From Allofournierella sp. (GTDB taxonomy: Bacteria > Bacillota > Clostridia > Oscillospirales > Ruminococcaceae), in the NCBI GenBank assembly GCA_020025635.1, contig JAHHRU010000003.1, positions 33,218 to 97,217 on the forward strand: a stretch of DNA of 64,000 nt. Reading direction: 5' to 3'. The notes below the pieces were generated by a model, which worked only from the letters and a program-made list of their open reading frames with translations, had not been told where the DNA came from and did not search any database. The first letter of the stretch is position 1. Every line of letters starts with the position of its first letter. The position numbers were made by a program, and so were the translations under genes. Below, one piece after another: positions 14,019-36,805 of this stretch.

Positions 14019-14825
14019 TTACTTCCGGATCGCATCCCGAACCTGTGCAAAGGCAGGGAGATTGGCGTAAAGGTGTGCACCGATCACTTCCATCAGCTTG
14101 AAATCCTCTTCACTGTCGATATCCAAAATGCCGGTATCCATCATCTGGCTCACATGGATCTTTGCATCCCAGATGATGCCGGTGGTGTTTTCCCGCAAAA
14201 AGTCCCGCTTGTAAACATAGATGCTGGCGTTCACATCGTAAAAAACAGGGGCCATCTGGCGGGCGGTGCACACTGCCTCGCCCTCCTTCTGCTCAATGCC
14301 CTTTTCGATGTGATCGCCGCAGTCACGCACCATGTTGAAATAGGGGTTGCGGCGGGATTCGGTCACACTGAACACCAGGTCCAGATCCTGGCGGGAGGCT
14401 TTCAGGTCATACGCATTGCGGATGTCCTGCGCGGTGCGCAGGGGGCTTGTGATATCCAGATCCATCACATAATCGTACTGCCCGCCCTTTTTTTCTTCCA
14501 TACGGCGCAGGCTGTCCTGGATGACCGCCATCTTGGGGGCACGGTCGCCGCTCAGCTCTTCATTGCGGGGCAGGAACACCACTTCCGGGTATTTTTCGGC
14601 CACCAGCTTTGCAAGATCCTGGCTGTCGGTGTTCAGGCAGATATCCATCTGCACATCCGGCTTTTCCTTCGCAAACAGCTCGGCCGCCGCCAGGCTGTAA
14701 TAGACCAGCGGCTTTTCGCAGAACACCTTCAGATTTTTGTTTTTAAAACCCTTGCTGCCTGCACGGCCGCAAATGGTAACCAGCAGTTTTTCCACAGTCA
14801 GACACTCCTCTTTTGCTTCAAACAC
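14019..14825 (-). CDS. neuA: acylneuraminate (nonulosonate) cytidylyltransferase, NeuA/LegF family
   Basis: 268 aa. CGRAGSKGFKNKNLKVFCEKPLVYYS resembles the RxGSKgxxxKN motif of CMP-NeuAc synthetases. Last gene of the NulO operon. Confidence 0.85.
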   Translation of the reverse strand: MFEAKEECLTVEKLLVTICGRAGSKGFKNKNLKVFCEKPLVYYSLAAAELFAKEKPDVQMDICLNTDSQDLAKLVAEKYPEVVFLPRNEELSGDRAPKMAVIQDSLRRMEEKKGGQYDYVMDLDITSPLRTAQDIRNAYDLKASRQDLDLVFSVTESRRNPYFNMVRDCGDHIEKGIEQKEGEAVCTARQMAPVFYDVNASIYVYKRDFLRENTTGIIWDAKIHVSQMMDTGILDIDSEEDFKLMEVIGAHLYANLPAFAQVRDAIRK

Positions 14826-14826
14826 A

Positions 14827-15753
14827 TTATTCGCCCAGGGTCAGGCGCAGAACGTCCAGCGCCATGGCCGGGCTGTTCACGCTCTCACCGGTGCCGCTTT
14901 GAACATAGTCCAGAAAATATTCCATCTCCCGGATGTACCGCTCATTCACCGGCTCTTCGTAATGCTCCACCGTTCCATCCTCCAGTGTCAGGGTGCCCGC
15001 ACCGAAATCGGCGGTCACTGTGCCGTTTTTGCAGAACAGCTCGATGCTGCGCCGGTACTGGCGGCCGAAATAGTCCAGGTGGATCTCAGCCAGCATGGAG
15101 GGATACCGGGCAATGTAAACCGAAAGGTCATCGGAATCGATTTCCAAATCGGAGTAAGTCCCCTTGAAGTTATAGCATTCCAGCGGGGTCCCGAACAGGT
15201 CCACCATGTAATCCCACTCGTGGATCAGGTCGATGGTAACGCCGCCACCCATTTCCTTGTGGGCAGAATACACCTTGCGGTAATCCACACCCGGCCGCCA
15301 TTCCGGCAGATAGGAAGAGCAGATGACCCTTGCCGAATAGGGTTTGAGCTTTGGCATTTTATCCTTCAGCGCAAGGAAGGTGCCGCACCAGCGCATGGGT
15401 GCTGCCACATAAGCCTTTTGATATTCCCCAAGGCCCAGGGCTTCCAGATCATATCCGGTCGCCTCAAAGATGGGCTTTTCGATAAAGAAACAGTCCACCC
15501 GCCCCGAAAGCTCTGCCATGGTATGTGCGTGCAGATGGGTGGGGTTTGTGATGAAGGCGGCATCATAATGGCCCAGCTGATCAAAGGTGGTATACTGATT
15601 TCGCAGAAGCCGGGCAGTCTCCTGCGGCAGAGGGCGCAGGCTGGAACGCAGCGCATCGGCATGCAGCTCCATGCCCCGCTTCTCTGCAATTTCATGCAGG
15701 TTTTTGAGGTGTCGTGTGCCAATGGATCCAATGCCGACAAACAATACTTCCAT
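14827..15753 (-). CDS. Gfo/Idh/MocA family oxidoreductase
   Basis: 308 aa. N-terminal VLFVGIGSIGTRH Rossmann motif. Paralogous to 16554..17531 (shared YLPEWRPG / YLPDWHPW block). Confidence 0.8.
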   Translation of the reverse strand: MEVLFVGIGSIGTRHLKNLHEIAEKRGMELHADALRSSLRPLPQETARLLRNQYTTFDQLGHYDAAFITNPTHLHAHTMAELSGRVDCFFIEKPIFEATGYDLEALGLGEYQKAYVAAPMRWCGTFLALKDKMPKLKPYSARVICSSYLPEWRPGVDYRKVYSAHKEMGGGVTIDLIHEWDYMVDLFGTPLECYNFKGTYSDLEIDSDDLSVYIARYPSMLAEIHLDYFGRQYRRSIELFCKNGTVTADFGAGTLTLEDGTVEHYEEPVNERYIREMEYFLDYVQSGTGESVNSPAMALDVLRLTLGE

Positions 15754-15759
15754 GGAAAC

Positions 15760-16548
15760 TCAATCCTCCTCTGGGCCGTACGCATACCGGCCCTCGTCTT
15801 CATCCTCTTCCGGGTCCTGGGGCGGCGCCACAGAAGGCCGGCCGGGGGTCACAATAAAGCCGGTGAAGTCCGGCAGCTCCCGCAGGTCCGCTTCCAGGCA
15901 GCCGGCGCCGCTGGCGAGCTTCTCCTGCATTTCGTCGGTATAAACCGGCACCACCACATACAAAAGCACCTTTTTGCTCACCTTGATGGGCACCGGGTGC
16001 ACGGTTTTGGGGCCGTTTTTTTCAGCGGGCAGATACAGCACCGCACCGCTGAATTCGGTGTTGGGGGCAAGCGGCCGGGCCGGGTCTCCGTTGGGGATGG
16101 AATGGCCGCTGCCCAGCCAGGTGTGCTGCTTTTGCGGCATGCAGGCAAGATGATACAGCATCCGCAGCGGCCAGCAGGTTTCCGGGTCCGGGTCCTGCTG
16201 AGCCGGTTTTGCCAAAAGGCCTGCCATGGGCCAGCTTGCGGGCAGATACATCATCAGTTCCGCCGTGCGCAGATAGGCATACTGCCGGTTGTGGGCCATG
16301 TTGTCCAGTTCCATCAGATTGGCGCTCATGCCCACCGTATAAGCCACATAGTAGGGCTCCTGCTCGGTGGGTGCCATCAGGCGGATGCGCATGCCGTCCT
16401 TATCCGTCCATTCAATGGTGGTCCGGCCGGGAAAATTCTCTTCAAAATGGGTGATGATATTTTCCGCATAAGGGGTGTTGTAAAGGGGGCCCTCATGGGC
16501 CGGTTCTTCCGGCTCAGGGCCGCCGAACAGTCTGCTCAGAAACGACAT
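15760..16548 (-). CDS. suppressor-of-fused (SUFU)-like domain protein with acidic C-terminal tail
   Basis: 262 aa, no TM or signal peptide. The pattern ...YYVAYTVGMS...AELMMYLPASWP...WPLRML...GHSIPNG matches my recollection of bacterial SUFU-domain (PF05076-like) proteins. The coding call is solid; the family call is from memory. Confidence 0.55.
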   Translation of the reverse strand: MSFLSRLFGGPEPEEPAHEGPLYNTPYAENIITHFEENFPGRTTIEWTDKDGMRIRLMAPTEQEPYYVAYTVGMSANLMELDNMAHNRQYAYLRTAELMMYLPASWPMAGLLAKPAQQDPDPETCWPLRMLYHLACMPQKQHTWLGSGHSIPNGDPARPLAPNTEFSGAVLYLPAEKNGPKTVHPVPIKVSKKVLLYVVVPVYTDEMQEKLASGAGCLEADLRELPDFTGFIVTPGRPSVAPPQDPEEDEDEGRYAYGPEED

Positions 16549-16553
16549 TTGGG

Positions 16554-17531: not shown

Positions 17532-17560
17532 TTCAATACACCTCGTATTTTTCAAAAGCT

Positions 17561-18760
17561 TTATTCCCCGTCGTAAAACTCTTTTGGGCTTCCGAACCCG
17601 GTACAGAAAAGCTTTTCTTCCAAAATATCCACAATGCGGCGGCTGGTTTCCCCGCCGTTGTAAGGGCTCACCGTGCGGCGGGCCTGCAAAACAAACTCCG
17701 GCTCCAGCGCCTTTTCCAGCGCAGCCTGGATCTGTGCTTTGTCCGCCGGGCAGCCGATCACGTTCTGGCAGAGGATGCGCCCCTTCTGCCGGTCGCCGAT
17801 GTTCACGGTGGGAACGCCCATGGTCGGGGTTTCCACAACCCCGGAAGAGGAGTTGCCAGCCACCAAAGCCGCAAGGCTCATGGCCGAAAGATAGCGCACC
17901 ACACCAAGGCTGGTGTATGCTGCCGCCGTGTCCCGGTTTGCCCCGGCCCATTCGTCGATCATTCTGTTCAGATCCAGGCCGCCGGCATCCGCATTGGATT
18001 TGGTGATAAGCCAGCGAAGCCCCGTTTTTTCGGTCACAGCGCTCATGGCTTTCAGCAGTGCTTCCATCTGGGCTTTGGGGTCTTTCCCGCCGGCAGTTTC
18101 CGGGTGGAAGGTCACAAGGCCGAAGGGCCGGGTCAAATCAAAACCCAGGCTTTCGGAAAGCTCTTGGGCATTCATTTTGGGCATGGTGCGCAGGTTTTCG
18201 TCCCCAAGGCCGCCCACATTGAACACCGTCTTCGGCGCTTCGCCCATGCGGATGACCCGCCGGGCATATTCCTCACAGCTGGGGAAATGCAGATGGGCGA
18301 TTTTGGTGATGCAGTGGCGGTACCAATCGTCCGCGGCACCCAGTGTCACATCGCCGCCGCTGATGTGCACCACCGGCACCCCGGCATAGGCGGCCGCCTG
18401 CGCCGCGGCAAAAATTTCATAGCGGTCGCCCAAAACCAGGGCCGCATCCGGCTTTGCCTGCAAAAACCAGCGGGTGAATTCCCGGATGGTATAGGCTACC
18501 GTATCGGCGGTGGCTTCTCTGCCCTGGCCGAATTTCAGGATGGGGATGCGGGCCGCAATGGGCATGCCGTCCCTTTCGATCTCCGAAACGGTGTTTCCGT
18601 AGGCCTCTTCCAGATGGGCGCCGGTCACGATCAGTGCGGGGGTGATTTTTTCCGATCGCAGCAGCTTTTCAAGCACCGGGCGCAGCAGGCCGTATTCGGC
18701 CCGGGTGCCGGTGACAACTGCCAGTGTCTTTTTTTCCATAAAAGCTGCCCCGCTCATCAC
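17561..18760 (-). CDS. neuC: UDP/GDP-N-acetylglucosamine-type 2-epimerase (hydrolysing), NeuC/LegG family
   Basis: 399 aa. LAVVTGTRAEYGLLRPV..., GDRYE and HISGGDVT motifs. ATGA overlap with the upstream neuB. Confidence 0.9.
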   Translation of the reverse strand: MMSGAAFMEKKTLAVVTGTRAEYGLLRPVLEKLLRSEKITPALIVTGAHLEEAYGNTVSEIERDGMPIAARIPILKFGQGREATADTVAYTIREFTRWFLQAKPDAALVLGDRYEIFAAAQAAAYAGVPVVHISGGDVTLGAADDWYRHCITKIAHLHFPSCEEYARRVIRMGEAPKTVFNVGGLGDENLRTMPKMNAQELSESLGFDLTRPFGLVTFHPETAGGKDPKAQMEALLKAMSAVTEKTGLRWLITKSNADAGGLDLNRMIDEWAGANRDTAAAYTSLGVVRYLSAMSLAALVAGNSSSGVVETPTMGVPTVNIGDRQKGRILCQNVIGCPADKAQIQAALEKALEPEFVLQARRTVSPYNGGETSRRIVDILEEKLFCTGFGSPKEFYDGE

Positions 18761-19758
18761 TCCAGCAGAACGATGGGCTCGTCCTCGCTGAAGGCCTTGC
18801 AGGCGCGCTTGCCCAGCACATCATACCAGCGCATGGGGCTGATGCCGGTGCCGGGGCGCTTGGTGGTCAGGTTTTCCTCGGTGAACACCTCACCGATCTT
18901 GATATCCCGGGCCGCCACGATGCTTTTGCGGGCGATGGGCTTGTTTTTGGCCTCAGAGTCGGTCACAGCCTTGTGGCCGGTGCCCAGAGCCTTTTCCACA
19001 TTGCGCACAGCCTTTATCATTGCGGCCAGCTCCTGCGGTTCCAGGCTGGCCTTGTGGTCCGGGCCTTCCATATTTTTATCCAAAGTAAAGTGCTTTTCGA
19101 TCACCACCGCACCCAGGGCCGCTGCGGCCGCGTCGCACTCCCAGCCAGGGGTATGGTCCGACAGGCCCACCGGAACGCCGAACTGTTCCGACAGGTCCAG
19201 CATGGCCAGAAGGTTTGCATCCTCGTAAGGGGTGGGGTATTCGGTATTGCAGTGCAGCAGTGTCACATACGGGCAGCCGCCGTTTTCAAGAACGCTCAAA
19301 GCATCCTCGATCTCCGAAAGGGTGCTCATGCCAGTGGAAAGGATGACCGGCTTTTTTGCCGCCGCCACCGCTTCCAGATAGGGCAGATTGGTAATCTCGC
19401 CGCTGGGAACTTTGAAATAGGGCAGATCCAGGCCCGCCAAAAACTGAACGCTGGGCACATCGAAGGGAGCCGACAGATACTGGATGCCGATGTGATCGCA
19501 GTATTCCTTCAGCTGACGGTGGCCGTCAAAATCAAAATGCAGCCTGCGGATCATTTCCAGCTGGCTCTCACCGTCGCCGGTCTGCTTTTTCTGGTATTCA
19601 GCCTTTTCGGCAAATTTGCTCACCACCAGCTCGGGCACGGCGGTCTGGTATTTCACCACATCCGCTCCGGCTTCCTTGGCGGCAAGGGCCATCTTTTTGG
19701 CAAGCTCCAGGCTGCCGTTGTGGTTCACGCCGGCTTCTGCAATTATCAAAACGCTCAT
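18757..19758 (-). CDS. neuB: N-acetylneuraminate/legionaminate synthase, NeuB/LegI family
   Basis: 333 aa. IIAEAGVNHNGSLELAKKM...DVVKYQT, LSDHT, and a C-terminal SAF domain. Confidence 0.92.
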   Translation of the reverse strand: MSVLIIAEAGVNHNGSLELAKKMALAAKEAGADVVKYQTAVPELVVSKFAEKAEYQKKQTGDGESQLEMIRRLHFDFDGHRQLKEYCDHIGIQYLSAPFDVPSVQFLAGLDLPYFKVPSGEITNLPYLEAVAAAKKPVILSTGMSTLSEIEDALSVLENGGCPYVTLLHCNTEYPTPYEDANLLAMLDLSEQFGVPVGLSDHTPGWECDAAAAALGAVVIEKHFTLDKNMEGPDHKASLEPQELAAMIKAVRNVEKALGTGHKAVTDSEAKNKPIARKSIVAARDIKIGEVFTEENLTTKRPGTGISPMRWYDVLGKRACKAFSEDEPIVLLE

Positions 19759-20804
19759 TGGTTTTCCTCCAGTTTTCTGCGCATCTTGTCCAGTTCTTCC
19801 ATCTGGCCCATATCCATCCAGCTTTGTTCGCTTACCGGGTAGACCCCGACCTTTTCGCCCAGGGCCCGGTAATGTTCAATGATATCGGTGAAGCCCTGGC
19901 ACTTGCCGTCCTCCAGCTCTTCGATCACCCGGGGCTCCACCGCATAAATGCCGGTATTGGTCCAGAAGTTCATCTCCGGCTTTTCCTGCATGGACTGGAT
20001 CGCACCGTTTTCACCCAGCTGGATGACCCCATAAGGCACAGTGAAGTGCTTTGCGGCGCACACCATGGTGATCACGTTGCCCTGCTTTTTGTGATATTCG
20101 GCAAGGTCGGCAAAATCCGCATCCAGCAAAATGTCACAGTTGGAAAGGAAGAAGGTCTTTTGGATCTGGCCCTTCAAAAGGCACAGGCCGCCTCCGGTGC
20201 CCATGGGGATATCCTCATCCACATAGCTCACCTGATAGGGCGGGTCAAGATCGTTGAAATAGCTTTTGATCATGCCCTTTTTGTAGTTCACCACCAGCCG
20301 GAAATCGGTGCAGCCGAAATCCCGGAACTTGTCGATGATGTGCTCCAGAATGGGCTTTTCCCCCACCGGGATGAGGGGCTTTGGCAGGATCTTGGTATAA
20401 GGATACAGGCGGGTGCCAAGGCCCCCCGCCATGATGACCACCGGGATCTCGGCACAGCTGCGGTTGTTCACATCCACGCCGCTGGTGAAGATGATATCCA
20501 CGATACGCCCCTTTGCATCCAGCAAAGGCAGTGCATCAATGGAATGCTGTTCGATATAGCTGCGGGCCAGGCCGCGCTGCCCCACCGGCAGGCTGAACGG
20601 ATGCCGGTTTGCCGCATCGGCCGCAAGGCCCTCCAAAGAGCCGCCCCGCAGGATGTATTTCCGAATATCCCCGTCGGTCAAAGCGCCCTTCAAAACCCCG
20701 TCCGGGGCCAAAAACAGGATGCGCTCGCCGGTTTCATCCAGGCGCTGCATCGCGCCCAGCACAGTCATTTCTTCGTTTATCAGAAACTGTTCGATTTGGA
20801 GCAT
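19755..20804 (-). CDS. CBS-pair plus sugar-phosphate nucleotidyltransferase (PtmE-like)
   Basis: 349 aa. N-terminal CBS pair (GALTDGDIRKY), then VVIMAGGLGTRLYPYTKILPKPLIPV, the NTP-transferase signature. Confidence 0.8.
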   Translation of the reverse strand: MLQIEQFLINEEMTVLGAMQRLDETGERILFLAPDGVLKGALTDGDIRKYILRGGSLEGLAADAANRHPFSLPVGQRGLARSYIEQHSIDALPLLDAKGRIVDIIFTSGVDVNNRSCAEIPVVIMAGGLGTRLYPYTKILPKPLIPVGEKPILEHIIDKFRDFGCTDFRLVVNYKKGMIKSYFNDLDPPYQVSYVDEDIPMGTGGGLCLLKGQIQKTFFLSNCDILLDADFADLAEYHKKQGNVITMVCAAKHFTVPYGVIQLGENGAIQSMQEKPEMNFWTNTGIYAVEPRVIEELEDGKCQGFTDIIEHYRALGEKVGVYPVSEQSWMDMGQMEELDKMRRKLEENQ

Positions 20805-20841
20805 GGCTTTCGCCTCGCCTTCTTAAAAAATAGATTTTTTC

Positions 20842-21999
20842 TTACAGCGACAGCAGCGTATCGATCACCCGCTGGCAGTCCTGCTCGGTCAGATGGGTGG
20901 AGCAGGGAATGTTCAGGATGCGCCGGCGGTATTCCCGGGCTTTTTCCATGTGGTATGCCTCGTTGCGGGGATAATCGCACTGCTCGTTGATGAGCGCCCA
21001 CACCGGGCGGGTCTGGATCTTGTTTTCAGTCAGGGCATCGATCACCGCATCCCGGTCCAGCCGCTCCGGCAGCTCCAGGCAGTAGAACCAGTGGTTCGAG
21101 CGGGTGCCCTCCCGGAATGGCAGGATCTTAAAGCCGTTCACCCCGTCCAGCGCAGCTTTATACTGCTCATACCGCTCCATCTTGTGCTGGATGAAGCCTT
21201 CCAGAAGTTCCATCTGGGCAAGGCCCAAGCAGGCATCCAGGTTGGTCATGCGGTAGTTGTAGCCCGGCTCGTCGTGATAGAACTGCACCACATCGGTTTT
21301 GGCCTGGGTGGACAGGTGGCGTGCATGGTTTGCCCAGTCCTCATGGTTGGAAACCAGGATGCCGCCGGTGCCGGTGGTGATGATCTTATTGCCGTTGAAG
21401 CTGTAAACGCCCACATCGCCGATGGTGCCGGCAAATTTTCCGGCCAGAGGGCCCTCGGTGTAGAGGGTGCCCAGCGCCTCGGCCGCATCCTCAATGAGGA
21501 TGAGCTTATATTTCTCTGCAATTTCCAAAAAACGGGGCATGTCGGCCAGATTACCGAACACATGAACCACCACAATGGCGCTCACATGGGCGCCGGTGTT
21601 TTTGTTGTAAAGGCCGTCTTCCTTCAAAGTGCAGTGGTTTTGGCAGAAGTCCTCCACCGCATCCGGGTCCAGGCAGCAGCTCTCATCACAGCCGATGAAC
21701 ACCGGCTCCGCACCCACATAACGGGTGGTGGGGTTCACCGAAGCAATGAAGGTAAGCGCCGGAACGATCACCTCGTCGCCCCGCTGAATGCCGGACACCA
21801 GAGCAGCCAGATGCAGGCCGGAAGAGCCGGAAGAGCAGGCCACTGCCTGGGGCATGCCCACATAATCGGCAACCACCTTTTCAAACTCGCCCACCTTTGC
21901 GCCGCTGGTGGAAACCCAGGCGCCTTCCAGCGCCTCATCCACATATTTTTTCTCGTTTCCGCAAAAATTCGGTACCGACAGAGGAATAAAATCTGCCAT
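20842..21999 (-). CDS. DegT/DnrJ/EryC1/StrS family PLP aminotransferase (LegC/PseC-like)
   Basis: FIPLSVPNF.GNE..YV.EAL......G..V.EFE pattern, and SFNGNKIITTG containing the catalytic Lys. I prefer the ATG at 21999 (MADFIPL). Confidence 0.85.
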   Translation of the reverse strand: MADFIPLSVPNFCGNEKKYVDEALEGAWVSTSGAKVGEFEKVVADYVGMPQAVACSSGSSGLHLAALVSGIQRGDEVIVPALTFIASVNPTTRYVGAEPVFIGCDESCCLDPDAVEDFCQNHCTLKEDGLYNKNTGAHVSAIVVVHVFGNLADMPRFLEIAEKYKLILIEDAAEALGTLYTEGPLAGKFAGTIGDVGVYSFNGNKIITTGTGGILVSNHEDWANHARHLSTQAKTDVVQFYHDEPGYNYRMTNLDACLGLAQMELLEGFIQHKMERYEQYKAALDGVNGFKILPFREGTRSNHWFYCLELPERLDRDAVIDALTENKIQTRPVWALINEQCDYPRNEAYHMEKAREYRRRILNIPCSTHLTEQDCQRVIDTLLSL

Positions 22000-22070
22000 G
22001 ATAAAAACCTCTTTTCCCTTTTTCAAAACATGTATTTCAGAGCCTGCAGCCGCCTGAAGGGGCCCGGCCG

Positions 22071-22706
22071 TTATTTCTTCCTCTTAGATTTATACCACAC
22101 ATACGCCTCCTGAGCAAGTGACAGGGCCGCTGCCGCCAGCGCCGGATAGAGGAGCATCCGGAAAAAGCCGTACCAGCCGGGGGCAAAATACATCCAGAAG
22201 GCCACCGGCTCGTTCACCTTGAAATCGCCGAACCGCATTTCCACGGTTTTTTCTTCATCCGGGCTGCAGGGGTCCAGCCGAAGGGCAGCGATATTGCCTG
22301 CCGGCAGGGTGTAAAGATAGGTGCCGTCGTTTTTCTGCTGCGCAAACACCCGCTTGTTCACCCCAAAGGGCTCATCGGGTTTGTTTGTGTAGTAAAGGCA
22401 CATCTCCCGGGGGCTGTGTGAAAACTCGGCTTCCATGCGCAGAGTGCGCAGAGTGATGCCGTCGGTATTCTGCCAGATCATCTGGGGGTCGCTGTTCTCG
22501 TTCACATACGGCCCTTCCGGGGCTTTGTGCATATTCACAAGCTCAAAATCCTGCGCCTGCATGGAAAATTCATAAAGGCTGCCGGTGCTTTTGGTGATCA
22601 TATCCCGCCCAAAGGACCAGATGCCGCCAATAAGCCACACCAGCACACACACCGCATAGCACAAAGCCGGAATGGAGAGCTTTTCTTTCCATTTATTCTG
22701 TTTCAA
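22071..22706 (-). CDS. bitopic membrane protein (N- and C-terminal TM helices, ~140-aa extracytoplasmic domain), unknown function; paralog of 24768..25385
   Basis: 211 aa. TTG start with GGAGGTG RBS. TTGA overlap with the upstream stop. Shares DPQ...LR[LI]DP motifs and architecture with the 205-aa ORF. Confidence 0.6.
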   Translation of the reverse strand: MKQNKWKEKLSIPALCYAVCVLVWLIGGIWSFGRDMITKSTGSLYEFSMQAQDFELVNMHKAPEGPYVNENSDPQMIWQNTDGITLRTLRMEAEFSHSPREMCLYYTNKPDEPFGVNKRVFAQQKNDGTYLYTLPAGNIAALRLDPCSPDEEKTVEMRFGDFKVNEPVAFWMYFAPGWYGFFRMLLYPALAAAALSLAQEAYVWYKSKRKK

Positions 22707-27394: not shown

Positions 27395-27434
27395 CTGCTG
27401 CACCTCCTTTGCAATCGGATTTGAAAGGGCCCCG

Positions 27435-29099
27435 TCACCGGATGGTGAACACCGGGCCGATGAAATAATGCTGGAACAAGAGCACGGCACCCACCGCGCC
27501 AAAGGCCGCCGAGGTGCCCAGGGCCAGCGTGTGGGCTTTTTTCTGCCCCTGCTCCAGGCGGGGCTCCAGCACATGGCTCAAAAGCGCCGCCAGCAAAACA
27601 AACAGCATGAGGAAGGCCGGCAGGAAATACCGGGCCTGCAGCCCGATGATGCGGATCATGCCCACCGGGGTGCTGGTGATATACATGGCCGTGGCCGCAC
27701 CCGCAATGTAAACAATGCTCAGCGCTCCAAGCCCCAGGGCAGGCCGCAGCCGCAGGCTGCTTTTTTCGTGCACCGAAAGGGCCGCCGCAAACAGCAGCAC
27801 CAGCGGGCTCATCCAGCTGATGAACCCCACTTCCAGATCCAGCGCGCCGAACAGCCCCAGCTGCCCGATGAAGAAATCGTTTTCATAAAAGCTGCCCAGC
27901 AGCACCGAAACGTAACGGAAGGGGTTCTGCAAAATGCCCAAAAGCTGAGGCACCTCGGCCGCACCGGCGATCTGCCGGCCCACATAGGGGTAGTTGTAGC
28001 GGAACACCGTTCCGTACCAGTCAAAAAACTTGCCCAGGGCAAACCCGCCCACAAGGCACACCGCTGCCAGCTGCCACTTTTTCCACCGGGTCTTCCAGGC
28101 GGTTTTGGGCAGCACCAGCGGCAGAGCGATCCACAACAGGTTGATATAGGGTTTTGCCAGGTTCATCATCACAAAGGCAAAAATGAACCAGCCGATGTCG
28201 CTGTCGGTGATCTCATCCTTGCAGTAGAAGCTGGCCACCAGGTAGTAAAAGCCCAGAAGGGTGGCATCATAGCTCACCGATGCCGCCATGTAAAGGCTCA
28301 GGGGCAGCAGCATGAATGCAAGGAACACCGGCTTATACCGCCGGCAGTTTTTAAGGGCCAGCCAGCAAAGCGCCGTGTATGCGGCAAGGTTTGCCAGCCT
28401 TGCGGCATACATGCAGCCAAGGGCGCCAAAGCCCAGCAGCCGGGCCGCCAGAATACCCAAAGCTTGGGGCAGCATGGAAACGGTCATAAAGAAATAGGGC
28501 TCGCCCAGCTGTTTTTCAGCGGGCACTCCGTTTCGGTAAGCGGAAAATCCATCCAAAATGCCTTCCACCCGGCCGTTTTCGCCCCGCTGTTTCAGGGCAT
28601 AGCCTGCCGTGGTGTAGCTTTTGGGGTTGCCGTCCCCATCCATGCCCATGCCCTGACTGGTGTGGGAGGCCACATACGCCCCGGGGAAGCTTTCCACCAG
28701 CTTTGCCACATCCTGCGGATAAATGCGCTGGGCATCAAAATCGAAATGCCCGCAGCTCAAGGACCAGCTGCGCAGAAAATGGTTGGTTTCATCCGGGGTC
28801 TGCAGCGGCGGGTTTGCAAAGCAGAACAAGGCGCCGCACAAAAAAATGGCCGCGGCGGCTTTGGCGTCCAACGTGGGGATAAAGCGGTGGCACAGGTACA
28901 CCGCCAATACACAAAGCAAAGCGAGGCCTGCCGCCGCCCCATACAAAGGCAGCGGGGCCACGCCCCGGGCATCCAGATAATAAAATACCCGCCAGTAATA
29001 AACCAGGGCCGCTGCCCCGGCCGCGGCGGCCAAGGCCCCCAGCAGCCAGCCCGCTGCCGGCAGGAAGCGCCCCGCCTTTTTGTTTTTCAGAGCTTTCAT
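27435..29099 (-). CDS. polytopic membrane protein, DUF2142-like (putative GT-C-type transferase)
   Basis: 554 aa. TM1, then NPPLQTPDETNHFLRSW (the PDE..H motif I associate with DUF2142), then about 10 or more further TM helices. Confidence 0.55.
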   Translation of the reverse strand: MKALKNKKAGRFLPAAGWLLGALAAAAGAAALVYYWRVFYYLDARGVAPLPLYGAAAGLALLCVLAVYLCHRFIPTLDAKAAAAIFLCGALFCFANPPLQTPDETNHFLRSWSLSCGHFDFDAQRIYPQDVAKLVESFPGAYVASHTSQGMGMDGDGNPKSYTTAGYALKQRGENGRVEGILDGFSAYRNGVPAEKQLGEPYFFMTVSMLPQALGILAARLLGFGALGCMYAARLANLAAYTALCWLALKNCRRYKPVFLAFMLLPLSLYMAASVSYDATLLGFYYLVASFYCKDEITDSDIGWFIFAFVMMNLAKPYINLLWIALPLVLPKTAWKTRWKKWQLAAVCLVGGFALGKFFDWYGTVFRYNYPYVGRQIAGAAEVPQLLGILQNPFRYVSVLLGSFYENDFFIGQLGLFGALDLEVGFISWMSPLVLLFAAALSVHEKSSLRLRPALGLGALSIVYIAGAATAMYITSTPVGMIRIIGLQARYFLPAFLMLFVLLAALLSHVLEPRLEQGQKKAHTLALGTSAAFGAVGAVLLFQHYFIGPVFTIR

Positions 29100-29225
29100 A
29101 GATCCTCTCGATCACAATCTTTTTACAGGCAGGAACCCGCCCCAAAATGCCGCAAAACCGGGCCGGCTTTAAAAAAAGTCAGCCCGGCTGTTTTGCTGGC
29201 AGGGCCCTGCGCTTTTTCGCAGAGC

Positions 29226-30209
29226 TTACAGGTTGTACACTTCCGGCTTGTACTGATCCAGATTTGCACGCAGGAATTTGATGGTTTCGGCAAGACCCTC
29301 CTCAAAGGTATAGGCCGGCTTCCAGTCGGTGAGCGACCGGATCTTGTCGGCGCAGCCCAAAAGGCGGTTTACTTCGCTCTTTTCCGGGCGCAGGCGCTGT
29401 TCATCACAGATGATGCGTGCTTCGGGGTTGATCTGGCGGATCAGCTCGTTTGCCAGATCTCCGATGGAGTGCTCAACGCCGGTGGCAATGTTCACTTCCT
29501 GGCCGATGGCCTTCTCGCAGCCGGCAAGGGCCATGAAGCCCGCAGCGGTGTCCTTCACATAGTTGAAGTCACGGGTGGGCGTCAGGCTGCCGAGCTTGAT
29601 CTCGGTCTGGCCGCTGAGCAGCTGGGTGATGATGGTGGGAATGACCGCACGGGCACTCTGACGGGGGCCATAGGTGTTGAAGGGCCGCACGATGGTGACC
29701 GGCAGATCGAAGCTGCGGTAAAAGCTTTCAGCCAGGCGGTCGGCACCGATCTTGGTTGCCGAATAGGGGCTCTGGCCCTGGTAGGGGTGCTTTTCATCAA
29801 TGGGAACATACTGGGCGGTGCCGTAAACCTCGCTGGTGGAGGTCACCAGCAGGCGCTTGGTGCCCACCTGGCGGGCAGCATTCAGCACATTGAGGGTGCC
29901 CTTGATGTTGGTGTCCACATAGCTGTCCGGGCTGTGATAGCTGAACGGGATTGCAATGAGGGCAGCCAGATGATACACGATGTCCTGCCCTTCCATGGCA
30001 TGGCGCACACCGTTGGGGTCACGGATATCGCCCATAAACACTTCGATCTCGTTTTTGATCTCAGAAGGCAGAGAATCCAGCCAGCCCCAGCTGCCAAAGG
30101 AATTGTAATAGCAAAAAGCCTTGACCTTCTCGCCCTTGCGTACCAGTTCTTCTGTCAGGTGGCTGCCGATAAAGCCGTCAGCACCGGTTACCATTACCGT
30201 ATTTGCCAT
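29226..30209 (-). CDS. NAD-dependent sugar-nucleotide 4,6-dehydratase, LegB-like
   Basis: 327 aa. VTGADGFIGSHL, YNSFGSWGWL, STSEVYG, YSATK and RPFNTYGPRQSARAVIPTIITQ resemble the Campylobacter LegB-type GDP-GlcNAc dehydratase subgroup. First gene of the minus-strand operon. Confidence 0.82.
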   Translation of the reverse strand: MANTVMVTGADGFIGSHLTEELVRKGEKVKAFCYYNSFGSWGWLDSLPSEIKNEIEVFMGDIRDPNGVRHAMEGQDIVYHLAALIAIPFSYHSPDSYVDTNIKGTLNVLNAARQVGTKRLLVTSTSEVYGTAQYVPIDEKHPYQGQSPYSATKIGADRLAESFYRSFDLPVTIVRPFNTYGPRQSARAVIPTIITQLLSGQTEIKLGSLTPTRDFNYVKDTAAGFMALAGCEKAIGQEVNIATGVEHSIGDLANELIRQINPEARIICDEQRLRPEKSEVNRLLGCADKIRSLTDWKPAYTFEEGLAETIKFLRANLDQYKPEVYNL

Positions 30210-30265
30210 AATGATATCTCCTTCACCCAGTGAATCGGGTTGTTGTTTTGTTATTAGCAGCTTTA

Positions 30266-30294
30266 AGTATAATATAAATCCCCCCCGATTTCAA
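30266..30294 (-). promoter_or_regulatory. sigma-A type promoter for the legB-led operon
   Basis: On the minus strand: TTGAAA-N17-TATACT, about 55 nt upstream of the legB-like ATG. Confidence 0.6.
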
Positions 30295-30308
30295 GAAAAA
30301 CACACCTC

Positions 30309-30337
30309 TTTACAGTAAAGCGGCCAGCCTGTATAAT
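30309..30337 (+). promoter_or_regulatory. sigma-A type promoter for the MBOAT-led operon
   Basis: TTTACA-N17-TATAAT, about 45 nt upstream of the TTG start at 30381. Divergent from the legB promoter. Confidence 0.65.
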
Positions 30338-30380
30338 AAATGGTTGAGAACTTATTCAATAAGAAAGGAGCTCCCGGCCC

Positions 30381-31946
30381 TTGAGTTTTCAGAGTCTTTC
30401 CTATTTTGCCTTTCTGCCGCTGGCAGCCTTCGTTTATCTGAAGCTTTCCCCAAAAGGCTGGCAGAACGGTGTTCTGCTGGCTGCAAGCCTTTTGTTTTAC
30501 TGGTGGAACCGGCCTTCTGGAAGTGCATTTTCCGGCATTTGGCCGTTTGTACCGGCGGCTTTGCTTATTTTGTGCAGTCTTTTCATCTGGAGGCTGGCGC
30601 TTTCCATCGAAAAGGCCCCGGCAAACCGCCGCAGGCGTTTGATCGGCCTTGGCATTGCCGTTCTGCTGGCGGTTCTGGCCCTTTTCAAATATTACAACCT
30701 GGTTTTGCCGATGCTGCCCATTGCGCCGGGTATGCTTCACCGGCTGCCCTTTCCCTTAGGCATCAGCTTTTACAGCTTTGCCGCCATCAGCTATCTGGTG
30801 GACGTGAGCCGAAAGGATATGCCCGCCCAGCGGGATTTTGTTTCCCTTGCTGCCTTCCTGTGCTTTTTCGGCTGCATCACCGCCGGTCCCATCTGCCGGG
30901 CCCGCCTGGTGCTGCCCCAGCTTGAGCAGGAGCACCGCTTCGATGCACAGCGCACCGTTCGGGCCATGCGGCTGTTTGGGCTGGGCCTGTTTAAAAAGGT
31001 AGCGGTTGCGGATGTGCTGATGGTTTATGTTTCCCAGGTTTTCGGGGATATTCCCGGCCACGGGGGGCCTGCCCTTCTGCTTGCCACTGTTTTTTACACC
31101 CTTTACCTTTATTTTGACTTTCTGGGCTATTCCGAAATGGCTCGTGCCAGCGCCCTTCTGCTGGGCCTTGAAATTCCGGAAAACTTCAAAACGCCCTTTT
31201 TTGCCACCAACTTCTCCGGCTTTTGGAGCCGCTGGCACATCAGCCTTTCCGGCTGGCTTCAGGATTATCTGTTCACCCCCCTTGTTTGGGCCGATGTTTC
31301 CAAGGTCCCGCTTTTGGGCCGCAGGGTGAGCCGCTTTTCGCCGGTGTTCTGCGTATTCACCGTGTTTTTTGTTTCCGGCTTTTGGCATGGCAGCACCCTG
31401 CCTTTTGTTGTGTGGGGCCTTTTGCAGGGCCTTTACCGGGCCGGTGAAGAGATCGCCCACCAAAAGCTGGGCAAGCCCCGGCGCAAGACTCCCGGCCGGG
31501 TGCTGTGGGCAAAGCGGGCCGGGGTGTTCTGCCTGTGGAGCTTTGGCATGGTGTTTTTTGCCATGGGCTCAAACGTGGGCGCAGCCGCAGGCGAAAGCCG
31601 GGGCATCCGGGATGCCTTTGCCATTCTGGCCGGCTGGTTCAAAGGCTGGTCTTTTCCCCGCTTTGTTTCGGAGAGCCGGCAGGCCGTTCTGGACGGTTTC
31701 TATGCCCAGCCCCTGATGGCCGCCGCCTTTGTGCTGTTCCTGGCGGTTTCGCTCATCCTTGCCGTTTGGCTGGATGTAAAACGGAATTTCAGCTTTAAAA
31801 ACAAGGATGAAGAGCAGGTGCTGGCTGCACAGAAGCCGGTTCTGCGCTGGGTGCTTTACTATGCACTGGTGCTTCTTTCCTTTGCCGGTCTGGTGATGCA
31901 GAACGGCGGTTTTGCCGGGGGCAGCTTTGCCTACGGCGGTTTCTAA
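30381..31946 (+). CDS. MBOAT family O-acyltransferase (AlgI/DltB-like)
   Basis: 521 aa, TTG start after AAAGGAG. Multi-TM, with WRRWHISLSxWLxDYLF-like block (FWSRWHISLSGWLQDYLF) and conserved His. Confidence 0.88.
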   Translation: MSFQSLSYFAFLPLAAFVYLKLSPKGWQNGVLLAASLLFYWWNRPSGSAFSGIWPFVPAALLILCSLFIWRLALSIEKAPANRRRRLIGLGIAVLLAVLALFKYYNLVLPMLPIAPGMLHRLPFPLGISFYSFAAISYLVDVSRKDMPAQRDFVSLAAFLCFFGCITAGPICRARLVLPQLEQEHRFDAQRTVRAMRLFGLGLFKKVAVADVLMVYVSQVFGDIPGHGGPALLLATVFYTLYLYFDFLGYSEMARASALLLGLEIPENFKTPFFATNFSGFWSRWHISLSGWLQDYLFTPLVWADVSKVPLLGRRVSRFSPVFCVFTVFFVSGFWHGSTLPFVVWGLLQGLYRAGEEIAHQKLGKPRRKTPGRVLWAKRAGVFCLWSFGMVFFAMGSNVGAAAGESRGIRDAFAILAGWFKGWSFPRFVSESRQAVLDGFYAQPLMAAAFVLFLAVSLILAVWLDVKRNFSFKNKDEEQVLAAQKPVLRWVLYYALVLLSFAGLVMQNGGFAGGSFAYGGF

Positions 31947-31976
31947 ACGACAAACAAACGGAAAGGAGTGCTCTGC

Positions 31977-32982: not shown

Positions 32983-34296
32983 GTGGGTCTTGATTTTCTG
33001 ATTTTATACGAACACACCGTTCGGGAATACGAAAGCGATCTGCTTTTAAAGCTGGAGCTGGAGCGCCGGGGCTACACCGCCGAGATCCGCCAGCTGCTGG
33101 ACCGCAAAAAGCTGAAATACTTCACCTGGAAAAAGCCCCGGGTGCTGGTTTCCAGCTGCATGTATGACAACGAAGCCATCAACAGCCATGTTTACAACAA
33201 CGTGGGAAGGCTTGACAAGATCGTGAACCTCCACTGGGAGCAGATGCTTTCGGACGATCAGGAGGAAGGCGACTGGTTCAACATGAGCGGCAACGCCAAA
33301 AAATGCGTGCAGACCTGCTGGGGCAGCCGCACCGCCGACCGCCTGGTGAGCCACGGCATGGAGCGTAAAAACTGCCCGGTGACCGGTGCGGTGATGATGG
33401 ATTTTCTGCGGCCGGAATTCAAGGGCTATTATGCAGACAAACAGCAGCTCTGCCAGGAATTCGGCCTTGACCCCAAAAAGGAGCTGCACCTTTACATTTC
33501 CAGCTTCGGCTATGCCAGCATGACCGAGCAGGAGGTAAAGGAGCTGAGCGAAATGGCCGGCACCGATTTCACCGGCTTTGCCGCCACCAACCGCATCAGC
33601 ATGAAAGAAACGCTGGACTGGTTCGACCGGTATCTGGAAAGCCACCCGGAGGTGGAGCTTGTCTACCGGCGCCACCCCAGCGAGTGGAACAGCCCCGCTC
33701 TTTCCCAGCTGAGCAAAAAACGGCCCAACTTCCATGTGATCTTTGAGCGCAGTGTGAAAGACTGGATCGTTGCGGCAGACTCCATCTCCATCTGGATGAG
33801 CACCGCCATTGCCGAGGTTTACATGGCCGGCAAAAGCTGCCACATCCTGCGCCCGGTGCCCATTGAGCACGAATATGACCCGGTCATTTACAAAGATGCC
33901 CGCTATATCACCAGCTACGAAGAATTCGCTTGTGCCATGGCCGAAAAGGACCCGCCCTTCCCCATCGCAAAGGATGTGATCGAGGGCTATTTTGACCCAA
34001 GCGATGCGCCCGCCTACAAGCGCATGGCCGATCTTTTGGAAGAGGTGCTCAAAAATCCCCCCCGGGCAAAGCCCATGGGTGAGGGCTTCACCCCTCATTT
34101 CAACTGGCTCAAGTTCTTTGCGCTCTGGGGCGTTCACATCCTGTTTTTCTTCCATCTCAAGCCCCAAAAGGTGTTTTTCTTCCACAAGGGCCTTGCCGAT
34201 TTTGCACAGCGCATCTACGGCTATGTGGAAAAAGCCTGGGTGCCCGGGGATAAGGCCAAAGCCATGGAAGACCGCATCCGTCCCTATGTAAAATAA
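32983..34296 (+). CDS. putative GT-B-like surface-carbohydrate biosynthesis protein (candidate CMP-nonulosonate transferase)
   Basis: 437 aa, soluble. The C-terminal half has a Rossmann-like pattern (LVYRRHPSE...VIFERSVKDWIVAADSISIWMSTAIAEVYMAGK) reminiscent of capsule/surface polysaccharide GT-B proteins. The family assignment is tentative. Confidence 0.45.
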   Translation: MGLDFLILYEHTVREYESDLLLKLELERRGYTAEIRQLLDRKKLKYFTWKKPRVLVSSCMYDNEAINSHVYNNVGRLDKIVNLHWEQMLSDDQEEGDWFNMSGNAKKCVQTCWGSRTADRLVSHGMERKNCPVTGAVMMDFLRPEFKGYYADKQQLCQEFGLDPKKELHLYISSFGYASMTEQEVKELSEMAGTDFTGFAATNRISMKETLDWFDRYLESHPEVELVYRRHPSEWNSPALSQLSKKRPNFHVIFERSVKDWIVAADSISIWMSTAIAEVYMAGKSCHILRPVPIEHEYDPVIYKDARYITSYEEFACAMAEKDPPFPIAKDVIEGYFDPSDAPAYKRMADLLEEVLKNPPRAKPMGEGFTPHFNWLKFFALWGVHILFFFHLKPQKVFFFHKGLADFAQRIYGYVEKAWVPGDKAKAMEDRIRPYVK

Positions 34297-34305
34297 GGAG
34301 GCTTC

Positions 34306-35535: not shown

Positions 35536-35544
35536 TCAAAAGCA

Positions 35545-35600
35545 GCCGATCCCCTTTTGACCTTTTTTCGCAAAAAGGCTGGTATGGGGGTCGGCTTTTG
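35545..35600 (+). terminator. compound hairpin plus T-run after the Wzx-like gene
   Basis: GCCGATCCCC...(inner hairpin CCTTTTTTCGCAAAAAGG)...GGGGGTCGGC, followed by TTTTG. Confidence 0.5.
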
Positions 35601-35683
35601 TGTTATACTGAATACATCAGCGGGCATATCGCCCGCGTTTTCTCTTGAAAAACAGATTTTCAATGAAGAAAGGAATCTGCGTT

Positions 35684-36805
35684 ATGAAATACTGCAAGAA
35701 ATGCACCATGCCGGACACCCGTCCCGGAATCACCTTTGACGAAGAGGGCGTTTGCAGCGCCTGCCGCCATTATGAGCACCGCAAAGAAGTGGACTGGGCC
35801 GCCCGCTGGAAGGAATTCGAAGCCCTTTGTGACAAATACCGCGGCTGCAACGGCCCCGGCGGCTATGACTGTGCCGTGGCTGCAAGCGGCGGCAAGGACA
35901 GCCACTTCCAGGTCTACATCCTGAAGGAAGTCATGCACATGAACCCCATCCTGTTCTGTGCCGAGGACAACTTCCCCATGACCGAAGCCGGCAAGCACAA
36001 CCTGAAAAACATCTCGGAGGCCTTCGGCTGCCCCATCATCAGCTGCAAGCCCAACATCAAGGCCCAGAAGATCCTGATGCGTGCCTTCTTTGAAAAGTAC
36101 GGCAAGCCCACCTGGTATATCGACCGTCTGATCTACACCTTTCCTTTGCACATGGCCCTCAAGTTCAACACCCCGCTTCTGTGCTACGGCGAGAACGTGA
36201 GCTTTGAATACGGCGGAAACGCAGACGAAGAGACTTACAGCGCCCGGGGCCAGATCGAAAACGGCGTGGCCGTCGGCTTCCCGGATGATGAGCTGGTCAG
36301 CTACGGCGTTTCGCTCAACGACCTTGCCCTGACCAAGGCCCCCACCCCAGAAGAGCTGCAGCGGCTGGACCCCTTCTACATGAGCTACTTTTTGCCCTGG
36401 AACAGCTACAAGAACTATATGATTGCCAAGGAGCACGGCTTCCACGATCTGACCCACGAGTGGGACCGCACCCATCACGCCGAAAACTTCGACCAGATCG
36501 ACAGCCCGGCTTATCTGGTGCACTCCTGGCTCAAGTACCCCAAATTCGGCCATGCTGCCGCCACCGATTACACCGCCCGCTACATCCGCTACGGCATGAT
36601 GACCCGGGAAGAAGCCATTCCCATCATCAAAGAGCGGGACGGCAGCCTGGACCCCCGCTGTGTGCGTGAGTTCTGCGAGTTCTGCGGCTACACCGAGAAG
36701 GAATTCTGGGCCATCATTGACAAATTCTACAACCGCGACCTCTTCTACAAAGATGAATTCGGCCGCTGGATGCTGAAAGAACCCATCTGGAACGAAAACA
36801 AGTGA
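35684..36805 (+). CDS. N-acetyl sugar amidotransferase (PP-loop ATPase; PseA/WbuX/WbpG family)
   Basis: MKYCKKCTMPDTRPGITFDEEGVCSAC zinc-ribbon N-terminus, then the AASGGKDS PP-loop. I prefer the ATG at 35684. Confidence 0.85.
   Translation: MKYCKKCTMPDTRPGITFDEEGVCSACRHYEHRKEVDWAARWKEFEALCDKYRGCNGPGGYDCAVAASGGKDSHFQVYILKEVMHMNPILFCAEDNFPMTEAGKHNLKNISEAFGCPIISCKPNIKAQKILMRAFFEKYGKPTWYIDRLIYTFPLHMALKFNTPLLCYGENVSFEYGGNADEETYSARGQIENGVAVGFPDDELVSYGVSLNDLALTKAPTPEELQRLDPFYMSYFLPWNSYKNYMIAKEHGFHDLTHEWDRTHHAENFDQIDSPAYLVHSWLKYPKFGHAAATDYTARYIRYGMMTREEAIPIIKERDGSLDPRCVREFCEFCGYTEKEFWAIIDKFYNRDLFYKDEFGRWMLKEPIWNENK

Follow-up and report, generated by a model that had tools for sequence, protein, structure and literature searches.

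What does a gut commensal do with a set of genes for a sialic-acid-like sugar, and which of its proteins carry that sugar to the cell envelope? We considered this question for a locus at positions 14019-36805 of a 64-kb stretch of Allofournierella sp. DNA (the window), in which genes of a legionaminic acid (Leg) pathway flank a 7-kb run of membrane-protein genes (22071-29099, from legB to legC) that makes up one third of the minus-strand unit. A preliminary description of this DNA had named the pathway genes, all of which we recovered, and had passed over the five membrane-protein genes of this run and missed a gene for a SUFU-domain protein. The Leg pathway is known. What appears to be undescribed is a family of membrane proteins resembling glycosyltransferases (GTs) of the GT-C class, together with a small partner resembling a carbohydrate-binding module (CBM), both recurrently linked to nonulosonate genes. 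We propose that the locus is probably an envelope-glycan island, in which a cytoplasmic pathway to a CMP-legionaminic-type sugar is joined to an extracytoplasmic assembly machine, and that the products of the five membrane-protein genes probably act outside the membrane, joining the glycan that bears the sugar to the envelope.

The prediction, from homology, that the locus makes a legionaminic-type nonulosonate via the GDP-N-acetylglucosamine (GDP-GlcNAc) route is well supported. Profile searches against Pfam and NCBIfam bore out the earlier calls of LegB, LegC, a CBS-domain nucleotidyltransferase, NeuB, NeuC and a NeuA-type cytidylyltransferase. LegB (TIGR04180, 510.7 bits, cut-off 475) and LegC (TIGR04181, 449.4 bits, cut-off 420) score above their curated cut-offs, whereas the models for the pseudaminic acid (Pse) enzymes stay below theirs (PseB, only 69.7 bits on LegB; PseC, 218 bits against a cut-off of 423 on LegC). 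The nucleotidyltransferase combines a CBS domain (residues 9-52; GutQ-type CBS region, 10-105) with an NTP_transferase domain (residues 123-347, 1.6e-30), and its nearest solved relatives in the Protein Data Bank (PDB) are GDP-forming mannose-1-phosphate guanylyltransferases. There is no curated PtmE model, and we call the protein PtmE-like from this architecture and its size, in agreement with the relationship to PtmE suggested before. For comparison, PtmE of the Plesiomonas Leg cluster has 352 amino acids (aa) and PtmF is a 326-aa oxidoreductase (PMC4481668). NeuB reaches 472 bits with TIGR03569 (NeuB_NnaB, cut-off 400) against 316 with PseI, and NeuC 408 bits with TIGR03568 (NeuC_NnaA, cut-off 236); neither TIGR03569 nor TIGR03568 separates Leg enzymes from those for N-acetylneuraminic acid (Neu5Ac). 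The cytidylyltransferase matches CTP_transf_3 (PF02348, 8e-9) above the Pfam cut-off, with PseF (TIGR03584, 79.9 bits) and KdsB far below theirs, and is 54-77% identical to its counterparts in the loci of relatives. PseG and PseH are not present (the PseG model has just one weak match, to an unrelated GT at 36880-38136), and neither locus nor window holds a PtmA-type short-chain dehydrogenase/reductase. In Tannerella forsythia, the Leg gene set was shown biochemically to start from GDP-GlcNAc, and the pairing of a NeuC-type 2-epimerase with PtmE was treated as the mark of Leg over Pse (PMC5378307). Because a NeuC-type hydrolysing 2-epimerase is present here and has no role in the Pse route, the same logic excludes that route (PMC5378307). 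The earlier assignment to the GDP-GlcNAc legionaminic type is thus supported by the LegB and LegC cut-offs, the PtmE architecture and the 2-epimerase.

Two Gfo/Idh/MocA oxidoreductases had also been announced. Both were found, one weakly matched (Gfo1) and one of PtmF size (Gfo2), and the SUFU gene separates them in the window. Gfo1 adjoins Gfo2 in 30 related loci, and its equivalent in locus L088 (by our numbering) carries GFO_IDH_MocA. The SUFU gene has its own GAGGAGG ribosome-binding site and gaps of 5-6 nt on either side. Of 79 related loci, just the window and L044 (56% identity) carry this gene, and it is a lineage-specific insertion. As SUFU-like proteins of bacteria often act in immunity, it makes an odd passenger among sugar genes. 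In L003 (Gemmiger sp. An87), an extra gene (17207-18382 of that locus) lies between NeuC and the first oxidoreductase; it was considered as a LegH acetyltransferase and rejected, as its motifs, judged by eye, are metallophosphatase-like. This insertion therefore marks the 3' part of the Leg operon as a recurrent insertion site.

We then examined the membrane-protein genes between legB and legC. The first encodes a DUF2142 protein of the class with 10-12 transmembrane (TM) helices, in a glycan locus that also has a Wzx-like gene; its family has an invariant P-D-E at 102-104. The other four form two pairs, each of a polytopic protein of about 670 aa (big1, big2) and a two-helix protein of about 205 aa (sm1, sm2), and have no Pfam or NCBIfam match. 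The big2 and big1 proteins share 29% identity across 591 residues (E 3e-46), the FDEF/WDEF motif among them, and sm2 is 24% identical to sm1 (E 3e-10), with DPQ and LR(L/I)DP motifs common to both. Since the bigs and the sms are each paralogous, the unit is a two-gene module duplicated in tandem. A common origin of the big genes and DUF2142 was also considered and rejected, there being no profile similarity.

An AlphaFold2 model of big1 built with 24 homologues (pLDDT 83.5, pTM 0.87) found GT-C enzymes as its sole high-probability PDB matches, namely ArnT and ALG12 (0.99-1.0), with EmbC weaker. Across the family, D113-E114 is invariant, within the motif FDEFSFWGT. In the model, the helices alternate with loops rich in K and R (74-86, 248-250, 287-298, 410-418 and 482-484), one of which precedes the DE pair; these positive-inside loops would place the DE loop and a C-terminal α/β domain outside the membrane. 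On this model, big1 is a predicted GT-C-fold glycosyltransferase. The sm1 model (pLDDT 88.9) has TM helices at 12-41 and 178-210 and, at 47-164, a β-sandwich that matches CBM86, CBM6 and CBM32 (E 1e-6, Foldseek).

The distribution of these genes links them to the nonulosonate pathway. Homologues are confined to Oscillospiraceae-type gut bacteria. Scanning one genome per species yielded 77 loci in Gemmiger, Subdoligranulum, Allofournierella, Faecalibacterium, Anaerofilum and Pygmaiobacter and in a few metagenome-assembled genomes (MAGs) otherwise labelled; all window proteins were compared with these loci by tblastn. The best relative, an Allofournierella MAG, is only 68% identical, so the species of the window is absent from the species representatives scanned. 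The full core legB-DUF2142-big2-sm2-big1-sm1 occurs in 63 of the 76 Oscillospiraceae species loci, and wherever legB is present it adjoins DUF2142. Conservation is highest by far for LegB, at 79-93% identity in all loci that carry it except one (L047, 25%). The Leg genes are contiguous in 30 loci, and the divergent MBOAT/SGNH/TIGR04396 genes are found in 19. Faecalibacterium species have extra big paralogues interleaved between legC, ptmE and neuB.

A profile search of 1.84 billion representatives widened the big family to 2,403 members at E ≤ 1e-3, 258 of them at E ≤ 1e-30. In every distant member sampled whose contig is long enough to judge, a gene of about 200 aa lies directly 3' of big, except in L084, where the order is DUF2142-big-329 aa-MBOAT. 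Locus L088 reads big-sm-big-sm-LegC-PtmE-NeuB-NeuC-Gfo-Gfo, and both L082 and L085 read big-sm-big-sm-CTP_transf_3-CBM9_2. In the latter two (L082, 5758-7365; L085, 8849-10268), the CTP_transf_3 gene and the gene for a CBM9_2 protein of about 205 aa follow the cassette, and no other nonulosonate genes are nearby.

Table 1. Features of the locus, with positions and strand in the window and the basis of each assignment.
Feature	Position	Strand	Basis
Acylneuraminate-type cytidylyltransferase (LegF/NeuA role), 268 aa	14019..14825	-	PF02348
Gfo/Idh/MocA-like oxidoreductase 1 (Gfo1), 308 aa	14827..15753	-	PF01408 6e-4, below cut-off
SUFU-domain protein, 262 aa	15760..16548	-	PF05076 1e-24
Gfo/Idh/MocA oxidoreductase 2 (Gfo2), PtmF-sized, 325 aa	16554..17531	-	PF01408 3e-11
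Hydrolysing NDP-sugar 2-epimerase NeuC/LegG	17561..18760	-	TIGR03568
Nonulosonic acid synthase NeuB/LegI	18757..19758	-	TIGR03569
CBS-pair + sugar-1-phosphate nucleotidyltransferase (PtmE-like)	19755..20804	-	NTP_transferase + CBS
LegC C4 aminotransferase	20842..21999	-	TIGR04181
sm1, bitopic, external CBM-like β-sandwich (predicted), big1 partner	22071..22706	-	AlphaFold2 model, Foldseek
big1, polytopic, sequence-orphan family, predicted GT-C fold, 674 aa	22703..24727	-	AlphaFold2 model, fold matches
sm2, paralogue of sm1, big2 partner	24768..25385	-	No Pfam/NCBIfam match
big2, paralogue of big1, 670 aa	25382..27394	-	No Pfam/NCBIfam match
DUF2142 polytopic membrane protein	27435..29099	-	PF09913 1.7e-37
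Structured legB/DUF2142 spacer (possible attenuator or terminator)	29100..29225	-	Hairpins, one followed by a U-run
LegB NAD-dependent 4,6-dehydratase	29226..30209	-	TIGR04180
Back-to-back sigma-70-like promoters	30266..30337	both	Within the 171-bp divergent spacer
MBOAT membrane O-acyltransferase (DltB-like, not DltB)	30381..31946	+	PF03062
N-terminally anchored protein with SGNH-type catalytic blocks, 332 aa	31968..32966	+	Motifs
TIGR04396/BFO_1060-type GT-B-like protein	32983..34296	+	Candidate CMP-nonulosonate transferase
Polytopic membrane protein, Wzx/MOP-flippase-like, 409 aa	34306..35535	+	Homologue annotation
Terminator-like hairpin between flippase-like gene and WbuX	35620..35636	+	G+C-rich stem + T-run
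WbuX/PseA-type N-acetyl-sugar amidotransferase	35645..36805	+	TIGR03573

The plus-strand unit encodes proteins that could transfer, export and decorate the sugar. Its MBOAT protein (PF03062, 5.5e-18) scores 154.9 bits with the DltB model TIGR04091, below the cut-off of 375. The MBOAT gene is followed, in 19 loci, by the gene for a protein with no Pfam or NCBIfam match, whose 17-sequence profile found nothing meaningful in the PDB. Alignment of 17 homologues shows candidates for SGNH blocks I (GDS), II (G), III (N) and V (DxxH), all invariant (GDSR 63-66, G90, N147/N151 and DGFH 310-313), and the 332-aa protein would be an SGNH-like partner of the MBOAT enzyme. In the distant locus L084, the 329-aa gene adjoins an MBOAT gene; its homology to the SGNH-motif gene was not checked. 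Of the pair proposed before, an MBOAT with a DltD/SGNH-like protein, the MBOAT holds, the SGNH assignment holds at the level of motifs, and the likeness to DltD was not borne out. A DltB/DltD D-alanylation system was rejected, since the DltB score is far below cut-off, the window has no DltA or DltC, and no DltD match was obtained.

The next gene product matches TIGR04396, a 'surface carbohydrate biosynthesis' family (261 bits, cut-off 125), and scores 83.9 bits with NF046086, the model for BFO_1060, below the cut-off of 200. It is therefore a member of the superfamily only. When 14 sequences were aligned, HP at 231-232 never varied, and QEEGDW was found as well; conservation within the family is unusually high, with a mean column identity of 82%, and a hydrophobic helix forms the C-terminus. 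A search with its sequence gave nothing meaningful in the PDB. The Tannerella Pse and Leg transferases, which are genetically validated, are GT-B/TagB-like and have HP and D/E-D/E-G motifs (PMC5420450). The TIGR04396 score and the HP and EEG motifs agree with the earlier suggestion that the window protein is a candidate CMP-nonulosonate transferase, an activity that is predicted. The Wzx-like protein has no Pfam match even at E 0.1. Annotations of its homologues read polysaccharide or lipopolysaccharide biosynthesis protein, and a few of these (65% identical) carry PF01943, so that the flippase announced before lacks a direct Pfam or NCBIfam match and is acceptable at the family level. The amidotransferase call was upheld (TIGR03573, 338 bits, cut-off 203). 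From the NCBIfam family name and the function of PseA, this WbuX/PseA-type enzyme predicts an acetamidino group on the product.

The limits 14019 and 36805 correspond to boundaries in the list of open reading frames (ORFs). The minus-strand unit extends from the LegB start (30209) down to the cytidylyltransferase stop (14019), in the order legB-DUF2142-big2-sm2-big1-sm1-legC-ptmE-like-neuB-neuC-Gfo2-SUFU-Gfo1-cytidylyltransferase; the plus-strand unit extends from the MBOAT start (30381) to the WbuX stop (36805), in the order MBOAT, SGNH-motif protein, TIGR04396 protein, Wzx-like protein and WbuX. The longest ORFs start too early for Gfo2, big1, big2 and LegC, and their starts were refined, based on ribosome-binding sites, to 17531 (an ATG with GAGGTG upstream), 24727, 27394 and 21999, respectively. 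Four 4-nt gene overlaps of the kind reported before (ATGA, TTGA, GTGA) are real. GGAGG-type ribosome-binding sites precede three of them, those of big2/sm2 (ATGA, 25382-85), big1/sm1 (TTGA, 22703-06) and PtmE/NeuB (ATGA, 19755-58); the fourth, NeuB/NeuC (GTGA, 18757-60), is without one.

The near-consensus back-to-back promoters noted between the two units were borne out by a scan of 18.5 kb (13500-32000), in which they are the two top-listed matches. The plus-strand promoter (30309-30337, TTTACA-17-TATAAT) agrees with the consensus at 11/12 positions and the minus-strand promoter (30294-30266, TTGAAA-17-TATACT) at 10/12, a score equalled at two other sites. The divergent arrangement that the preliminary description had read as two operons stands; that each unit is a single operon is only plausible, as internal terminator-like structures are present. 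Between legB and DUF2142, the RNA of the 126-nt spacer has a folding energy of -57.8 kcal/mol (z = -3.5), which 0 of 200 shuffled sequences equalled, and contains a long hairpin followed by UUUUG. This spacer may attenuate transcription into the membrane genes. Because no Rfam family matches anywhere in the 64-kb window, it is not a described riboswitch. On the plus strand, the hairpin before WbuX consists of six G-C pairs followed by GTTTTCTCTT.

Several neighbouring genes are relevant to the limits of the locus. Two ThrE-family exporter genes with a ribosome-binding site (12780-14002, minus strand) begin 16 nt past the cytidylyltransferase. No terminator was found between this gene and the ThrE genes, and the minus-strand transcript may therefore run beyond 14019. 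Past WbuX and a weak terminator-like hairpin lies a GT28 gene (36880-38136, plus strand) resembling MGDG synthase and diglucosyl-diacylglycerol synthase, which could make a glycolipid anchor for the same envelope polymer. A second glycan cluster (4457-10776, minus strand) is located 3 kb from the locus. It encodes two GT2 proteins (6183-7124 and 8241-9038) that weakly resemble the polyprenyl-phosphate-sugar synthases PpgS, AglJ, ArnC and PgfS, an FAD oxidoreductase, a xylose-isomerase-like TIM barrel, an epimerase-like protein and a 581-aa polytopic membrane protein without a family match.

The G+C content of the locus (0.55-0.59) is the same as that of its flanks, and recent transfer of the locus was rejected on this basis. 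Its relatives place the host among Oscillospiraceae of 55-60% G+C, near Allofournierella. Elsewhere in the window, one gene (2-1930, minus strand) joins an IspH (LytB) domain to four S1 RNA-binding domains, a fusion seen in Clostridia that fits this placement. An oligopeptide-type ABC permease (50738-52729, plus strand; OppC_N and BPD_transp_1) has RCC1 repeats inserted at residues ~116-258, between the N-terminal helix and the permease domain, which is an unusual fusion.

Taken as an envelope-glycan island, the locus would work as follows. In the cytoplasm, the PtmE-type enzyme would form a GDP-hexosamine, which LegB would dehydrate and LegC would then aminate at C4. The N-acetylation assigned to LegH would need an enzyme encoded outside the locus, or the step would be replaced; the C4 amine is acetylated by an unlinked enzyme, or else the product is not Leg5,7Ac2. 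The NeuC-type enzyme would release and 2-epimerise the sugar, the NeuB-type synthase would condense it with phosphoenolpyruvate, and the cytidylyltransferase would yield the CMP-sugar; the WbuX/PseA-type enzyme would turn an N-acetyl into an acetamidino group. At the inner face of the membrane, the membrane-associated TIGR04396 GT-B protein may move the nonulosonate from CMP to a lipid-linked acceptor, and the Wzx-like protein may flip the lipid-linked intermediate. Outside, the three GT-C-type enzymes (DUF2142, big1 and big2) would polymerise the glycan, graft it onto a wall polymer, or both, with the CBM-like sm partner, translationally coupled to each big, holding or measuring the glycan acceptor. 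The MBOAT and SGNH-motif pair would O-acylate the exported glycan last. Curated homology supports the cytoplasmic pathway only, and we infer the membrane steps from fold, topology and gene linkage.

Several observations count against this proposal. Neither the locus nor the window holds an N-acetyltransferase of the LegH, NeuD or PglD type in Pfam and NCBIfam scans, and a scan of all window ORFs for the hydrophobic period of 6 that marks hexapeptide-repeat proteins gave only antisense artefacts and none in a coding frame; nor was an acetyltransferase seen in L003, the one relative whose gap was examined. No initiating phosphoglycosyl or polyprenyl-phosphate transferase is encoded within 14019-36805, and the GT2 proteins of the second glycan cluster could feed the GT-C enzymes with ordinary hexoses. 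The NeuB protein lies at about the same distance from solved PseI as from NmNeuB, in a PDB set that comprises PseI and Neu5Ac synthases only. The fold matches of big1 are remote (E 4e-3 to 2e-2, TM-score 0.28-0.45), profile-profile comparison detects no relationship between the big and DUF2142 families (probability 0.3), and the SGNH and Wzx assignments come from motifs or annotation only. Finally, among the loci whose sequence continues for 9 kb or more downstream, 36 have legB as the only Leg gene near the core.

This last pattern suits an alternative in which the GT-C and CBM genes serve another wall polymer with ordinary polyprenyl-phosphate sugars and lie beside the Leg genes because envelope genes cluster. 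In Gemmiger formicilis ATCC 27749, the core stands alone as an isolated six-gene unit between unrelated genes, the nearby GT2 proteins are weakly similar to polyprenyl-phosphate-sugar synthases, and reviewed GT-C enzymes take lipid-linked donors, mostly polyprenyl-phosphate-monosaccharides (PMC9574508). We nevertheless regard an unrelated polymer as unlikely, given that legB is kept beside the core in nearly every locus at high identity, that the Faecalibacterium paralogues sit among legC, ptmE and neuB, and that distant members of the big family lie beside a complete set of Leg genes (L088) or a cytidylyltransferase of the CMP-sugar type (L082, L085). The GT-C enzymes also include protein glycosyltransferases such as PglB and the PMTs, which brings in general O-glycosylation of an S-layer or other surface protein, with one or more GT-C proteins as oligosaccharyltransferases for a Leg-capped oligosaccharide, as in Tannerella forsythia. 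The presence of a Wzx-like protein and of a candidate transferase in the family that takes its name from the Tannerella O-glycan Pse/Leg transferase would fit such a system. It is a poor candidate, however, as the window genes scanned include no S-layer, flagellin, pilin or Maf gene, the CBM-like partners suggest a glycan acceptor, and the best fold matches are ArnT and ALG12 and include no oligosaccharyltransferases.

That the product is Neu5Ac or Pse instead of a legionaminic-type sugar seems to us very improbable. The NeuB, NeuC and NeuA-type families are common to the Neu5Ac pathway, and the models for the first two do not discriminate, while NeuB is about as close to PseI as to NmNeuB. 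Against this, LegB and LegC pass their equivalog cut-offs, the PseB, PseC, PseI and PseF models score far below theirs, the 2-epimerase and the lack of PseG and PseH speak against Pse, and the Neu5Ac route requires no dehydratase, aminotransferase or PtmE. A more specific version of the island proposal can also be framed, in which the big family and its CBM-like partner are devoted to glycosylation with nonulosonate outside the membrane, the donor being lipid-linked. Legionaminic acid, by itself or attached to a minimal primer, would be loaded by the TagB-like GT-B onto a polyprenyl-phosphate carrier, the Wzx-like protein would flip it, and outside the cell the three GT-C enzymes would legionaminylate wall polymers or polymerise on them. 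To our knowledge, all nonulosonate transferases use CMP-sugars and act in the cytoplasm, and extracytoplasmic legionaminylation would therefore be a new route; we hold it to be a speculative and rather improbable one. If true, many abundant human gut Oscillospiraceae (Faecalibacterium, Gemmiger, Subdoligranulum) would display a sialic-acid-like sugar.

With the envelope-glycan island as the favoured proposal, the locus matters for several reasons. Nonulosonic acids displayed by bacteria influence how host lectins, antibodies and phages recognise the cell surface, and have been studied almost only in pathogens. Here, the Leg-type locus or the legB/GT-C core is shared by dozens of species (Allofournierella, Gemmiger, Subdoligranulum, Faecalibacterium and Anaerofilum). 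These bacteria are dominant among gut commensals, and the glycans on their surface are essentially uncharacterised. In the literature searched, legionaminic acid and Faecalibacterium are both mentioned by eleven papers; one of these lists the sugar for Enterococcus only and calls the composition of the Faecalibacterium capsule unknown. The big family, with about 2,400 cluster representatives, and its obligate small partner gain a testable role as a GT-C enzyme and a carbohydrate-binding partner linked to nonulosonate glycans, and the missing N-acetyltransferase suggests an unlinked enzyme or a chemically different sugar.

The membrane module can be compared with several known systems. As in DltB/DltD, PatA/PatB and AlgI/AlgJ/AlgX, an MBOAT protein is followed by an anchored protein with candidate GDS, G, N and DxxH blocks; the differences from DltB/DltD are the low DltB score, the absence of DltA and DltC, and a partner without detectable sequence similarity to solved structures. 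With ArnT and the three-component systems (GT-A, flippase, GT-C), big1 is predicted to share an acidic pair in the first large external loop and an external C-terminal domain, whereas its match to ArnT is remote (TM-score 0.28-0.42, 11-13% identity), it has three extra N-terminal helices, and the locus has no ArnC-like gene.

The closest parallel in parts is the lactococcal pellicle (PSP). Its lipid-linked unit is assembled intracellularly, and WpsG, a Wzx-type protein, flips it; WpsI, a GT-C protein with DUF2142, polymerises together with WpsH, a co-polymerase with two TM helices and a large external loop; and WpsJ, another GT-C protein, grafts the polymer onto rhamnan (PMC9574508, PMC12599335). 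DUF2142 proteins are the proposed GT-C polymerase and transferase of lactococci (PMC12599335, PMC9574508), the domain being carried by WpsI and inferred for WpsJ. The likeness, drawn from the description in these papers and not from sequence comparison, lies in the parts list: a Wzx-like protein, DUF2142, further GT-C folds and small proteins whose two TM helices flank a large external domain. In contrast, the big family of the window has no profile similarity to DUF2142, the big/sm pair is tandemly duplicated, the cargo is linked to a nonulosonate pathway and not to rhamnan or PSP, and the locus has no initiator of the WpsA/B type. The sm proteins resemble WpsH and Wzz-like co-polymerases in topology and adjacency, with an external domain that is a CBM-like β-sandwich (as modelled) and not the Wzz-like fold described.

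On the cytoplasmic side, the GT-B-like protein shares with the Tannerella transferases Tanf_01245, TFUB4_00887 and BFO_1060 the TIGR04396 family, the HP and D/E-D/E-G-type motifs and a place in a nonulosonate locus; it differs in matching the BFO_1060 model below cut-off and in its C-terminal hydrophobic helix. Compared with PtmE/LegB/LegC/LegH/LegG/LegI/LegF of Campylobacter jejuni and BFO_1063-1074 of Tannerella forsythia, the locus is without LegH/NeuD/PglD and a PtmA-type enzyme and adds a second Gfo/Idh/MocA protein and the SUFU gene, whereas LegB, LegC, a NeuC-type hydrolysing 2-epimerase, a NeuB-type synthase, a cytidylyltransferase and a CBS-domain nucleotidyltransferase are present and contiguous, together with a PtmF-sized oxidoreductase. 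The host also differs, being a Gram-positive gut commensal instead of a flagellated or lipopolysaccharide-bearing pathogen.

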